Shown piece by piece: positions 11 through 3,399 of a DNA stretch of 20,000 bases. The stretch is taken from positions 177,754-197,753 of the forward strand of contig JBGQBE010000002.1 in the NCBI GenBank assembly GCA_041494685.1. Reading direction: 5' to 3'. Source of the DNA: Dehalococcoidia bacterium (GTDB lineage Bacteria > Chloroflexota > Dehalococcoidia > DSTF01 > JACRBR01). Below the pieces are notes generated by a model that worked only from the letters and a program-made list of their open reading frames with translations, was not told the DNA's origin and searched no databases. A program made the translations under genes and the position numbers. Numbering within the stretch: the stretch's first letter is position 1; every line of letters starts with the position of its first letter.

Positions 11-892
11 CTACGCCAGTTCGGACTCGCCGCGCACGTCGCGCCCCGCCTCGACGTCGTCGATGAACTCGAAGACGGCGCGCTGCCACAGCTTCGGCCG
101 GAAGTCGGGCGTCGAGTGCGCCGCGCGGCGGATCGTCACCAGGCGCGAGTTCGGGATCAGCGCGTGATCGCGCTCGGCGCACGGGTAGAAGTCGTCCCAC
201 TCGCCGCACGAGACGAGCGTCGGCGCCGTGATCGCGGGCGTGCGCGACGTGAGGTCCGGGCGCTCACGCAGCGCACGGTTCGCCGCCAGGTATCCCGCCT
301 CCGTCATCATCTCAAGCTTCTGCTGCCGGTTCTTCGCGCCCTGCTCCTCCAGCGACATCTCGGACAGCCGCGCGTAGCGGTCGCTCTCGAGGCGGTACAC
401 GTCCTCGCGCTCGACGAGCCCCGCCATGCCGTACTTCTCGACGATGTACGCCATCCGCTCGAACGCGCTGATGATCCGGCGCTCGACCTCATTCGCCGCC
501 GCGCTGGAGCCGGCGCCGTTGCCCGCCGTCGTGTCGCAGAGCAGCAACGACCGCAGGCGCTCCGGGTAGTCGCAGGCGAACTGCGCGCTGATCATGCCGC
601 CCATCGACACGCCACCTACGTGCGCGCGCTCGATGCCGAGCGCGTCGAGCAGCCCCGCCAGGTCGGCGGCGAACTGCGGCACGGTGACCGTCGCCGGATC
701 GGCGGGTACCGTCGTGTTGCCGTGGGCGCGCACGTCGTACAGCAGCAGGTCGAAGTGTGTCTTGAACGCCTCGATGATCGGCGGCCAGCCGCCCGTCGGC
801 CCGGCGAAGCCGTGCGTCAGCACCAGCAGCGGCCCCGGCGCGCCGGAGCGCTCGTACCAGATGTCGATGCCGTTGACGCGCGCGGTCGGCAT
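11..892 (-). CDS. Alpha/beta fold hydrolase (293 aa)
   Basis: Start trimmed to MPTARVNGIDIWYE (ATG at 892). HGF oxyanion motif, YDVRAHG, nucleophile elbow GVSMGG, Asp in GEWDD and His in AAHS. Confidence 0.9.
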   Translation of the reverse strand: MPTARVNGIDIWYERSGAPGPLLVLTHGFAGPTGGWPPIIEAFKTHFDLLLYDVRAHGNTTVPADPATVTVPQFAADLAGLLDALGIERAHVGGVSMGGMISAQFACDYPERLRSLLLCDTTAGNGAGSSAAANEVERRIISAFERMAYIVEKYGMAGLVEREDVYRLESDRYARLSEMSLEEQGAKNRQQKLEMMTEAGYLAANRALRERPDLTSRTPAITAPTLVSCGEWDDFYPCAERDHALIPNSRLVTIRRAAHSTPDFRPKLWQRAVFEFIDDVEAGRDVRGESELA

Positions 893-894
893 GG

Positions 895-1221
895 CTATCG
901 GCCTGACTTCGCGGAGCGGGATGAGCGCGACGGCCGCTGCGGCAGCACGACCGCGCCCTCGGCGGGCGCGTTCCACAACTGCTCGGCGCGGCGCGGCGCG
1001 CGCACGTTCGGCGGGAAGATGCCGTTGATCGAGGCGATGACCAGCGTCAGCCCGGAGAGCGCCAGGATGGCGAAGAAGAGCAGCAGCCACGCCACGAACA
1101 GGTCGCCGCGGATGCCGAGCGCGTGCGGGACGGGCGTCCAGAACAGGAACAGCCCGATCACGAACCAGAGCCCGGCGAACACGAACGCCGTAACGGCGGT
1201 GCGGTAGCTAATGCGGCGCAT
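895..1221 (-). CDS. Small two-TM membrane protein of unknown function (108 aa)
   Basis: Two hydrophobic segments (TAVTAFVFAGLWFVIGLFLFW; LFVAWLLLFFAILALSGLTLVIASI). Stop lies 2 nt before the hydrolase start. TG-C-TACGAT extended -10 sits 8 nt upstream of ATG 1221. Confidence 0.7.
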   Translation of the reverse strand: MRRISYRTAVTAFVFAGLWFVIGLFLFWTPVPHALGIRGDLFVAWLLLFFAILALSGLTLVIASINGIFPPNVRAPRRAEQLWNAPAEGAVVLPQRPSRSSRSAKSGR

Positions 1222-1312
1222 CAGGCAAGATCGTAGCACATGAGATCCGGGCAGCGTGGGGGCTCGAGCCAACGGCGCTTAGAGGATCTACCCAGGAACG
1301 CACCTTCGGTAG

Positions 1313-1350
1313 TATGATCCTCATGGCGGGAGGCGTACGGTAACGGAGGG
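1313..1350 (+). promoter_or_regulatory. Putative -10 (TATGAT) and Shine-Dalgarno (GGAGGG) for the DUF5131 operon
   Basis: TATGAT at 1313-1318; GGAGGG at 1345-1350, 5 nt before ATG 1356. Confidence 0.5.
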
Positions 1351-1355
1351 CTGCC

Positions 1356-2099
1356 ATGTCGAGCACGTCATCGATCGAGTGGACGGACGCAACCTGGAAC
1401 CCCGTCACCGGCTGCTCAAAGGTCTCGCCGGGGTGCGCGCACTGTTACGCCGAAACGTTCGCCGAGCGTTTCCGCGGCGTGCCCGGGCACCCATACGAAC
1501 AGGGCTTCGACCTCAAGCTTTGGCCGCAACGCCTGGAACTGCCGCTCACGTGGAAGCGTCCGCGGATGATCTTCGTCAACTCGATGAGCGATCTCTTCCA
1601 CGATGACGTCCCCGATGCCTTCATCCAGCAGGTGTTCGATGCGATGGGGCGCGCCGACTGGCATACCTTCCAGGTGCTGACCAAGCGACCGGAGCGAGCC
1701 GCCGCGATGTCGGCGCAACTGCCGTGGCGTGCGAATATCTGGATGGGCACGAGCGTCGAGAACCAGCGCTTCACGTCGCGCATCGAGTCGTTGCGGGGCA
1801 CCGCGGCTCACGTGAAGTTCCTGTCCTGTGAGCCGCTGCTCGGGCCGCTGAAGCTCAAGCTTCGCCATATCGACTGGGTGATCGTGGGCGGCGAGTCCGG
1901 CCCCGGCGCGCGGCCCATGCGCGCCGACTGGGCCCGCAGCGTGCGCGACCAGTGCGGGGCGTCGGGCGTGGCGTTCTTCTTCAAGCAGTGGGGCGCGCAC
2001 GACGAAGCCGGCATCCGCGTGGGCAAGAAGCACGCTGGACGCGTACTCGATGGTCGAACGTGGGACGGGATGCCCCGGACGGCGGCACTCGCACGCTGA
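1356..2099 (+). CDS. DUF5131 / phage Gp37-Gp68 family protein (three-Cys CX6CXXC, radical-SAM-like)
   Basis: SIEWTDATWNPVTGCSKVSPGCAHCYAE, IFVNSMSDLFH, FQVLTKRPER, FLSCEPLLGPL, IDWVIVGGESG, FFFKQWG, GRTWD: all family hallmarks. Confidence 0.93.
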   Translation: MSSTSSIEWTDATWNPVTGCSKVSPGCAHCYAETFAERFRGVPGHPYEQGFDLKLWPQRLELPLTWKRPRMIFVNSMSDLFHDDVPDAFIQQVFDAMGRADWHTFQVLTKRPERAAAMSAQLPWRANIWMGTSVENQRFTSRIESLRGTAAHVKFLSCEPLLGPLKLKLRHIDWVIVGGESGPGARPMRADWARSVRDQCGASGVAFFFKQWGAHDEAGIRVGKKHAGRVLDGRTWDGMPRTAALAR

Positions 2100-2943
2100 T
2101 GCCAAGACAGAAGATTCCGCGACCGATAGGCGACTGGACAGCGCACAAGCTTGAGCATCTCAGCGCGTACCTCGAGGCTTTTGCCAAGGCTACGACCACA
2201 GCTCGCGAGCGATATTACATCGATGCGATGGCCGGCTGTGGCGAGTGCGTGCTCTCGAAAACTGGCTATTCTACTCCAGGCTCAGCTTTGCGCGCGTTGA
2301 ACGCTAGACCACGGTTCACAGGCATTCACTTGGTGGAACTCGACCCGGCGTCCGCGCAGCACCTACGTCTCAAGATGCAGTCCCACCGAAACGTCTTCGT
2401 GTACCAGGGGGATTGTAACGAAGTGATCCCGCGAGACGTGCTCCCAAAGATCTCAACGATCGCGCCGACGCTGGCGTTCATCGATCCGACGGGTGTGCAG
2501 TCCACCTGGACATTAATCGAGCGAATCGCGCGACATCGCAAAGGTGTGCGCGGCGAGAAGATCGAGCTGCTCGTCTGTTCGCGTTCGACATGTTCATCAA
2601 CCGTTGGCTGAAGAACGAATCTTCGTGGCCCCAGTTAGACGCGTTCTACGGAACACACGCGTGGCATGCGGACCTTCTTGAAAGCCAGCGGCTCGGCGAG
2701 GACCTCGATGCACGGCGAGAACGATTCATGAAGCTTTATATGGATCGATTGAAGGCCGTCCTTGGTTACAAGTACGTTGATCCCCACGGTCCGCTGAAGA
2801 AGAAGAACCGCACTCTATACCACATGATCTTCGCCACGGATCATCCTGCTGCACACAGAATCATGAGTGACGTCTGGGGGAAGGCCCGTCCGTTACCAGG
2901 AGACATGTTCTATCAGAAGACTTTCGATCTTGAACCAGGCTGA
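2099..2943 (+). pseudogene. tcmP: Three-Cys-motif partner protein (TcmP-like, SAM-methyltransferase-like fold), split by a 1-nt frameshift near 2575
   Basis: ATG overlaps the DUF5131 stop (TGATG). WTAHKL..L..YL, YIDAMAGCG, VELD, GDCN and AFIDPTG occur in the first frame (stop 2611); LYHMIFATDH occurs in the second frame (2590-2943). Inserting one C after GTC 2573-2575 joins them as IELLVLFAFDMFINRW, 281 aa in total. Confidence 0.8.
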
Positions 2944-2993
2944 CGACTGACAGTCGCGGCGACACAACGGCGACGCGCAGGGCTCTCAATAGG

Positions 2994-3019
2994 AGAGGCC
3001 CCCTTCACCGGGGGCCTCT
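2994..3019. terminator. Hairpin between convergent tcmP and glnK, likely a (bidirectional) terminator
   Basis: AGAGGCCCCC-ttcacc-GGGGGCCTCT, a perfect 10-bp stem. U-tracts are weak on both sides. Confidence 0.65.
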
Positions 3020-3051
3020 TCCGCTTCGATGCTCTGTGCTGGCCGCGGCGG

Positions 3052-3399
<348 letters not shown>

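Follow-up and report, generated by a model that had tools for sequence, protein, structure and literature searches.

A site-conserved DUF5131 gene beside an exchanged and frameshifted TcmP partner in a Dehalococcoidia genome: a possible DNA-damage-linked two-enzyme module in probable decay

The 20,000-nucleotide stretch of a Dehalococcoidia genome analysed here (contig JBGQBE010000002.1, positions 177,754 to 197,753 of the forward strand; hereafter "the window") carries near its beginning a gene of the DUF5131 family followed by a gene of the TcmP family (TIGR04474), the latter being split over two reading frames. The best reading of this pair, to which a probability of roughly 0.4 can be assigned, is that it represents a decaying copy of a DNA-damage-linked module of two enzymes acting on DNA, the nature of the substrate being suggested by the fold neighbours and the gene context. 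To judge from its sequence, the module is probably inactive in the window genome, in which TcmP is broken by a 1-nt deletion and a conserved G is no longer present in the LexA box. Taken by itself, the locus belongs to a catalogued candidate system as an ordinary, and broken, member; what the locus offers anew is a fixed enzyme gene whose partner has been exchanged at one chromosomal site, a loss-of-function TcmP allele that is probably segregating, and a promoter whose LexA box has an intact counterpart in a sister genus for direct comparison.

Both family assignments had been proposed in a preliminary description based on the letters of the sequence, and both are borne out by profile searches. 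The DUF5131 protein matches Pfam PF07505 over profile positions 2–243 of 243 (E 6.4e-106; 353.7 bits, the gathering cut-off being 28.9), phrog_2045 of PHROG (2.9e-104) and the PADLOC models PDC-M41B (4e-109) and PDC-M30B (9e-105), its match to the NCBIfam model "radical SAM mobile pair protein A" (SAM, S-adenosylmethionine) being weak and far under the cut-off (66 bits vs 355). At E ≤ 0.01 PF07505 is the sole Pfam family found, the spore photoproduct lyase (SPL) family PF20903 not being matched; no PF20903 match was found elsewhere in the window genome either, and this genome holds a single DUF5131 copy. The N-terminal piece of TcmP (2099–2608) matches TIGR04474 at profile positions 1–155 with 98.7 bits (cut-off 53) and the C-terminal piece (2590–2940), in the other frame, at positions 166–261 with 47.5 bits, while a Pfam search yielded no match for these pieces and no real match for 115 homologues. 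Both TcmP halves match PADLOC PDC-M41A (9.7e-20 and 5.3e-7), and the adjacent component genes of PDC-M41/PDC-M30 are both present at the locus. The suggestion that the pair is a candidate defence system is not new, the pair having already been catalogued as the candidates PDC-M41 and PDC-M30.

The preliminary description, in speaking of a pair to be "frame-repaired", had implied a broken gene, and the splitting of TIGR04474 over two frames proves this to be correct. Frame A reads EKIELLV, frame B goes on as LFAFDMFINRWL and the consensus of the homologues is EKIELLILFAFDMFINRWL, from which it follows that exactly one base is missing. Intact TcmP homologues are 278–287 amino acids long and 72–73% identical to the N-terminal piece of the window, the C-terminal part being 49% identical to that of the TcmP of the related genome G028; at this locus TcmP has no intact frame of the usual length of a TIGR04474 protein (~260–290 amino acids). 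For a check of the frameshift, the contigs of four sediment-metagenome runs were placed on the locus. The contig of run X1, the probable source (depth 11.7), agrees with the window at the frameshift, a single 428-nt contig of run X4 (depth 2.7) has an extra T behind position 2573 that restores the frame and shows no other difference, and the contigs of the remaining two runs end before the site. An assembly error is unlikely to be the origin of the frameshift, since the window is matched there by the independent X1 contig, and a programmed frameshift is ruled out by the existence of the allele with one extra T and by the finding that the TcmP matches of the relatives are all single open frames. 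The break is a very recent loss-of-function allele that is probably still segregating and, because TcmP is frameshifted, the window copy of the pair is, on sequence grounds, probably non-functional.

Concerning the origin of the locus, the preliminary description had taken the two genes to be a cassette inserted among unrelated genes. The neighbours are indeed unrelated, every one with a Pfam match being a housekeeping gene; the insertion, on the other hand, does not withstand comparison with other genomes. The order abhydrolase, small membrane protein, DUF5131, TcmP, (glutamine synthetase), P-II and Amt recurs in G004, G024, G017, G013 and, partly, in G001, which represent five other genera of the family to which the window genome belongs, and this synteny in at least five related genera rules out a simple recent insertion of two genes. 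The DUF5131 proteins found at this site are 72–86% identical to that of the window and diverge like the products of the flanking genes (Amt 70–85%, P-II 79–88%, abhydrolase 64–71%), whereas the identity of TcmP is 30–34%; it is TcmP alone that has been exchanged. Vertical inheritance as a core gene pair, which the preliminary description had set down as an outcome that would tell against its proposal, is therefore seen with DUF5131, retained at the same site in at least five genera, and not with TcmP.

In a blastn comparison with G004, positions 1106–2030 are aligned at 78.6% and similarity is back at 3046; because similarity breaks at 2030 and resumes at 3046, the last ~70 nt of DUF5131, TcmP and the downstream hairpin are a replaced block. 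Its G+C content is 0.54–0.58, down from ~0.70, and the G+C content at third codon positions (GC3) is 0.64–0.69 in TcmP, 0.85 in DUF5131 and 0.89–0.97 in the host genes; a clearly lower GC3 of TcmP (0.63–0.75 vs 0.80–0.93) is also seen in five of the eight cassettes of relatives. In G002 the site is empty, P-II and the membrane gene being ~70 nt apart, and G007 is likewise without the cassette. In the case of G001 (L006/L195, G001:C23:4471-5178) the decay is reversed with respect to the window, DUF5131 having an in-frame TAG and TcmP being open. Between the cassette site and glnB-amt, G007 (L200, G007:C22, 1896–3026, minus strand) and G024 (L192, G024:C3, 9660–10982, minus strand) have a glutamine-synthetase-like gene, which neither the window nor G002 possesses.

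The association of the two genes was analysed in 160 loci containing DUF5131, of which genomes and metagenomes contributed 80 each, with a local hidden Markov model of the TcmP alignment. TcmP was found within 400 nt of DUF5131 at 126 of the 160 loci, or at 126 of the 140 with room for a partner. In these paired loci TcmP is located upstream on the same strand (70), downstream on the same strand as in the window (35), or in convergent (15) or divergent (6) orientation; at one further locus it is 1.7 kb off, behind an insertion sequence, 20 loci are without TcmP at a contig edge and 13 are without it despite room on both sides. The insertion sequence, which has an rve integrase, sits between the two genes at L057 (10905–11909, minus strand). 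Two of the solo DUF5131 genes, belonging to two Dehalococcoidia genomes, are found beside a large Lhr repair helicase (L028, 5328–9833, and L034, 5385–9962, both on the minus strand). Pfam matches to a GMT-like winged helix-turn-helix were seen in or just past the TcmP genes of L072 (11212–11853) and L075 (11606–12901), and L072 has a gene for Nmad2 (nucleotide modification associated) as a neighbour.

The different pace at which the two genes change is also apparent in 109 full-length pairs, left after omission of 17 of the 126 for partial coverage by the model or for stops: DUF5131 has a median pairwise identity of 0.58 and TcmP one of 0.22, the Spearman coefficient being 0.115, and where DUF5131 is 80–90% identical, TcmP is below 40% in 60% of the pairs. 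Both families are large, with at least 8000 DUF5131 homologues at E ≤ 1e-10 and 4792 TcmP cluster representatives at E ≤ 1e-3; among the matches listed, metagenome loci are 56–72% identical to the window, a separate DUF5131 protein (P0013) reaching 97%. In 41 related genomes (counts including G021), DUF5131 occurs in 13 and TcmP in 16. DUF5131 is present in 181 of 50,697 phage records, and TcmP-like genes were found in seven with one query.

In three of the genomes having TcmP without DUF5131 (G026, G027 and G028) a gene of the SPL family PF20903, encoding 305–314 amino acids, lies directly upstream of TcmP. These SPL genes (E 1e-22 to 5e-25) have the canonical CX3CX2C motif and account for three out of three assessable genomes; in a fourth, G032, TcmP is at the contig start and the upstream partner is not judgeable. 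Thus TcmP has as its neighbour either DUF5131 or a true enzyme of the spore photoproduct lyase family, in agreement with the fold results described below. In G028 (L016, 667–1440, plus strand) and G032 (L013, 1222–2280, minus strand) an SPP1-type phage portal-like gene adjoins TcmP, so that these TcmP copies are probably located within prophages.

The radical-SAM nature of DUF5131, surmised in the preliminary description from the cysteine motif, is supported by its predicted structure. In an alignment of 33 homologues, whose labels comprise Chloroflexota, Acidobacteriota, Actinomycetota, Planctomycetota, Cyanobacteria and Proteobacteria, 64 columns are invariant, including the three cysteines of C20-x6-C27-x2-C30 (33/33). 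The model built from this alignment (predicted local distance difference test, pLDDT, 91.9) was compared with 48,161 chains; spore photoproduct lyase (4fhc_A) came first, with Z 13.8 and a root-mean-square deviation of 2.8 over 195 residues, followed by viperin (11.0), SuiB (10.5), SkfB, lipoyl synthase and lysine 2,3-aminomutase, all top 22 rows being radical SAM enzymes. Foldseek, too, gave spore photoproduct lyase as the top match. Searches with the DUF5131 profile against solved structures returned chance-level rows only, and those with single sequences of the pair nothing useful. The spacing CX6CX2C departs from the canonical CX3CX2C loop, but the radical SAM superfamily accepts non-canonical cluster spacings. 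RadicalSAM.org has DUF5131 as a subgroup, Megacluster-5-2, beside spore photoproduct lyase at 5-3 (PMC9477430). On these two grounds DUF5131 is filed, as a model-based assignment, as a variant member of the superfamily.

TcmP was modelled on P0005 (63–68% identical to the window pieces) with an alignment of 115 full-length matches. The model (pLDDT 95.9) is closest to RlmJ of E. coli, the 23S rRNA m6A2030 methyltransferase (PDB 4BLV, 7P8Q), with Z 15.8 over 211 residues, i.e., over the whole length, and a Foldseek E of 1.7e-7; Trm1, TYW2, Hen1 and Trm5 follow in lower rows. Searched against the PDB, the TcmP profile reached only E 0.026, with the motif pairs YiDlfAGeG/YLDTHAGAG, GSP/PGSP and flDP/LIDPPY. 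Conservation in the 115 sequences is high at K16 (115), S61 (113), E/D79 (113), D104 (103) and D128 (114), which correspond to K18, S100, E118, D143 and D164 of RlmJ; of these, S100, E118, D143 and D164 serve SAM, and K18 and D164 catalysis (PMC3814359). Shared with RlmJ are therefore the motif X Lys, motif I D-x-x-A-G-x-G, GS(P), the acid of motif II, the Asp of motif III and the Asp-Pro of motif IV. The latter motif is D-P-x-G in TcmP and not DPPY, position 130 being variable and position 131 a G in 82 of 115; in RlmJ the Tyr of DPPY does not stack on the base either (PMC3814359). Other differences are the low identity (12–14%), the lack of any match to the RlmJ Pfam models at E ≤ 0.01 (0/115) and the lifestyle of the gene, RlmJ being a vertically inherited housekeeping rRNA enzyme and TcmP mobile and hypervariable. 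Altogether, the model assigns to TcmP an RlmJ-like class I SAM-methyltransferase fold with the cofactor ligands and the catalytic Lys/Asp kept, which substantiates its description as methyltransferase-like; the motifs IDAMAGCG, VELD, GDCN and FIDPTG cited in that description are all in the frame-A translation. Prediction of a complex between DUF5131 (A3) and TcmP (A2) gave a score of 0.01, the mark being 0.32, and this is evidence neither way.

A possible link with the SOS response comes from the promoter region. The sequence GAACGCACCTTC of the window, which is one mismatch from GAAC-N4-GTTC and is probably a degenerate SOS operator, aligns with an exact GAAC-N4-GTTC box of the nearest relative G004 (L011), with respect to which a G is replaced by C, and both precede the same −10-like element. 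The window and G004 have the stretch GGTAGTATGATCCTC in common, and TATGAT is found in the same place after the LexA box in G001 (L006). The own promoter ascribed to the pair has therefore a mixed record: a sigma-70 consensus scan of positions 1100–3200 returned no site, leaving TATGAT uncalled, whereas this hexamer and the LexA-like box are conserved with the nearest relative. Boxes of the form TAGAAC-N4-GT.., with one mismatch each and the GT of the right half-site kept, precede the lexA and recA genes of the host. The host genome also contains perfect TAGAAC-N4-GTTCTA palindromes (G000:C3:114288, G000:C37:29292 and G000:C3:48795) that are likely true LexA operators.

In the 270 nt preceding each pair, 12 exact GAAC-N4-GTTC boxes were counted, distributed over 11 of the 126 paired loci, the expectation derived from the same loci (43 in 1.43 Mb) being 1.12, i.e., an enrichment of about tenfold; most of them are 23–60 nt ahead of the start codon. 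The alphaproteobacterial motif GTTC-N7-GTTC was found nine times (1.59 expected) and the gammaproteobacterial CTGT-N8-ACAG was not found upstream of the pairs (0 vs 0.18 expected). An exact box precedes DUF5131 in four of 11 relatives, one instance being the promoter of G004 homologous to that of the window. At L115 the pair is ~15 nt behind lexA (2240–2836, plus strand), itself preceded by the palindrome TTACAAATGTAA, and at L096 (7686–13418, plus strand) it lies between IMS (ImuB/DinB-type) and DnaE2-like genes, all on one strand. SplB-like radical SAM genes have been published as members of SOS regulons (PMC8565304, PMC3765255). The LexA link and the SPL-family partner, both absent from the preliminary description, favour an SOS-tied DNA chemistry at least as strongly as phage defence.

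If the pair is a DNA-damage-linked module, its operation could be envisaged as follows. LexA would normally repress the two genes and DNA damage would switch on their expression. TcmP would be the variable, target-selecting subunit, which on binding to DNA would flip a base into the SAM pocket and methylate, or at least hold, an exocyclic amine, while DUF5131 would be the constant catalytic subunit, using its 4Fe-4S cluster and SAM to generate a 5′-deoxyadenosyl radical that takes an H from the nucleic-acid substrate, as in spore photoproduct lyase. The product would be a DNA base, repaired or chemically altered.

The genomic surroundings of the pair have a bearing on this interpretation. The PDC systems of PADLOC are candidates that go back to genes lying within BREX, DISARM or type I restriction–modification loci (Payne et al., bioRxiv 10.1101/2024.01.29.577857). 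The preliminary description had recommended a check for enrichment in defence islands; in a tally of 197 immediate-neighbour open reading frames at 114 of the 126 paired loci, based on our own sorting of Pfam names and without a control set, a defence or mobile neighbour was seen at 24 loci and an SOS/repair neighbour at four, the rest being housekeeping genes or without match. The former include HsdR (twice), Eco57I/MmeI, DpnI, DarT1-NADAR, AbiEi, PIN (twice), Uma2 (twice), SIR2-TPR, Cas5d, an integrase, a transposase and TraG. In Gordonia phage Easley (L025, MH155867.1, 2992–4859) DUF5131 (gene 38) is convergent with a "methyltransferase" (gene 39), and the pair is flanked by a tyrosine integrase and the immunity repressor. 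In the window, no defence or mobile gene was found in the 17 kb downstream of the pair. The literature searches returned no phage phenotype in print for the pair, PDC-M41/PDC-M30 appearing in surveys only; no biochemistry for DUF5131 or TcmP, which are represented by annotation labels, listings and phage annotation, as the preliminary description had held; and nothing that combines LexA/SOS, radical SAM, methyltransferase, mobility and an operator.

Several of these data weigh against a DNA-damage-linked module. The replacement of TcmP, the patchy distribution (13/41 and 16/41), the pseudogenes, the lower G+C content and the defence or mobile neighbours at 24 of 114 loci would suit a repair enzyme less well than a conflict system. 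Control by LexA is also common in mobile elements and known from some toxins, so that SOS control is no proof of repair. Furthermore, LexA motifs vary by phylum, and the boxes are present in only 11 of 126 pairs for a single motif suited to Chloroflexota and Actinomycetota; the genome abounds in sites that deviate at no more than one position (1180, or 3.6e-4 per nt), and the window box has such a mismatch. Most of the 181 phage records hold DUF5131 alone, indicating that TcmP is not strictly needed. Finally, RlmJ is an rRNA enzyme that was inactive on single-stranded DNA (PMC3814359).

The main rival, which is nevertheless rather unlikely, is an anti-phage defence resembling restriction–modification, in which TcmP would be a selector like Mod or HsdS, DUF5131 a radical effector that marks or damages foreign nucleic acid, and SOS control would merely time expression. 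The matches of both genes to PDC-M41 and PDC-M30, the defence and mobile neighbours and the position of the Easley pair between integrase and immunity repressor are all in its favour, as are the patchy distribution, the low GC3 and cassette-like replacement of TcmP, the pseudogenes in the window and G001 and the tolerated loss of a single gene, which is what would be seen with an effector that needs a specificity subunit. However, the tally of neighbours was made without a control set and consists mostly of housekeeping genes, no defence or mobile gene is present in the 17 kb downstream in the window, the literature searched has no phage phenotype, and lexA and imuB-dnaE2 operons have the pair among their genes; moreover, DUF5131 has been kept vertically at one locus in at least five genera with 64 invariant columns, which is unusual for a gene engaged in an arms race.

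A distinctly less probable alternative is direct-reversal DNA repair, in which DUF5131 alone would be an SPL-type lyase for an ultraviolet or alkylation lesion and TcmP an accessory for recognition or recruitment, without methyl transfer. Spore photoproduct lyase is the closest fold, SPL-family genes substitute for DUF5131 beside TcmP, SplB-like genes belong to SOS regulons of several phyla, LexA boxes are enriched ahead of the pairs, solo DUF5131 genes occur beside the Lhr helicase in L028 and L034, the conservation of DUF5131 is extreme and TcmP lacks DPPY. Yet DUF5131 has no Pfam SPL match and has CX6CX2C instead of CX3CX2C, a repair accessory is not expected to be swapped for 30%-identical versions at a fixed locus, and real SAM chemistry is suggested by the retention in TcmP of every SAM ligand and of the catalytic Lys/Asp. 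Even with RlmJ as the closest relative of TcmP in fold, Trm1, TYW2, Hen1 and Trm5 coming next, and with several radical SAM enzymes acting on RNA, it is highly improbable that TcmP is, like RlmJ, a methyltransferase for an adenine of rRNA or tRNA and that DUF5131 modifies the RNA further: patchiness, swapping, pseudogenisation, carriage by phages and control by LexA are not expected of a housekeeping RNA modifier, and the closest fold of DUF5131 acts on DNA.

A DNA-acting module tied to the SOS response thus remains the preferred interpretation, and it can be extended to a more general and doubtful proposal, namely that TcmP together with DUF5131 or its SPL stand-in constitutes a new class of damage-induced DNA chemistry. 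A swappable RlmJ-like amino-methyltransferase subunit that selects the target base and flips it, and a near-invariant radical SAM subunit resembling spore photoproduct lyase that carries out C–H chemistry on this base, would install or remove an undescribed base modification, and this combination of a conserved effector with an exchangeable specificity subunit would have been recruited by SOS regulons, phages and defence islands. Should the pair act on DNA under SOS control, either the DNA-damage response or the field of DNA modification and defence would gain a radical-SAM branch.

It is instructive to compare the pair with known systems. PDC-M41/PDC-M30 is the TcmP/DUF5131 pair itself (TIGR04474/PF07505), having the same models, size and two-gene layout as the window; the differences are that the window TcmP is frameshifted, leaving the system incomplete, and that the candidate name carries no mechanism. 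With spore photoproduct lyase (SplB, PDB 4FHC; COG1533/PF20903, "DNA repair photolyases") the pair shares the closest fold, the TcmP neighbourhood and the LexA link, whereas DUF5131 is ~100 residues shorter, with another cysteine spacing and no Pfam SPL match. The analogy with type I/III restriction–modification is one of logic, in that a conserved effector is combined with an exchangeable selector of methyltransferase type and the loss of either is tolerated, but the pair is without helicase or nuclease subunit and its effector is a radical SAM enzyme. Similarly, the imuA-imuB-dnaE2 cassette is patchy, horizontally spread and LexA-regulated, and the L096 pair lies inside such a cassette, but proteins and chemistry are unrelated.

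The features of the locus are collected in Table 1. The coupling of the two genes through TGATG had been correctly described, the TGA of DUF5131 (2097–2099) and the ATG of TcmP (2099–2101) sharing one A in a 1-base overlap, and the Shine-Dalgarno sequence is likewise in place.

Table 1. Features of the DUF5131/TcmP locus (window positions) and SPL-family/TcmP loci of relatives
Feature	Position	Strand	Remark
LexA-box-like palindrome GAACGCACCTTC	1296..1307	+	One mismatch from GAAC-N4-GTTC; probably a degenerate SOS operator
−10-like hexamer TATGAT	1313..1318	+	Putative cassette promoter, conserved with G004
Shine-Dalgarno GGAGGG	1345..1350	+	5 nt ahead of the DUF5131 ATG; sequence reading
DUF5131 (Gp37/Gp68) gene	1356..2099	+	Open, 247 amino acids; radical-SAM-type with C20, C27, C30
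Exchanged segment	2031..3045	+	DUF5131 3′ tail, TcmP and hairpin; no nucleotide similarity to the G004 cassette
TcmP pseudogene, 5′ part	2099..2573	+	Frame A, residues 1–159 ahead of the break; Rossmann SAM-binding motifs
Frameshift	2573..2574	+	TT pair short of one T
TcmP pseudogene, 3′ part	2575..2943	+	Frame B, no further lesion
Hairpin, 12 bp, G+C-rich	2992..3021		No strand; between convergent TcmP and glnB; terminator-like on either strand
SPL-family/TcmP locus L016 (G028:C3)	2249-3172	−	
SPL-family/TcmP locus L023 (G026:C6)	517-1428	+	
SPL-family/TcmP locus G027:C187	4556-5071		

The hairpin downstream of the pair, another element of the preliminary description, was recovered as well: the region 2940–3055 has a minimum free energy of −60.5 kcal/mol with z −3.88, and none of 200 shuffles folds equally well. 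A terminator scan did not call this hairpin because it is without a T run, and the two terminator-like sites found by the scan lie elsewhere.

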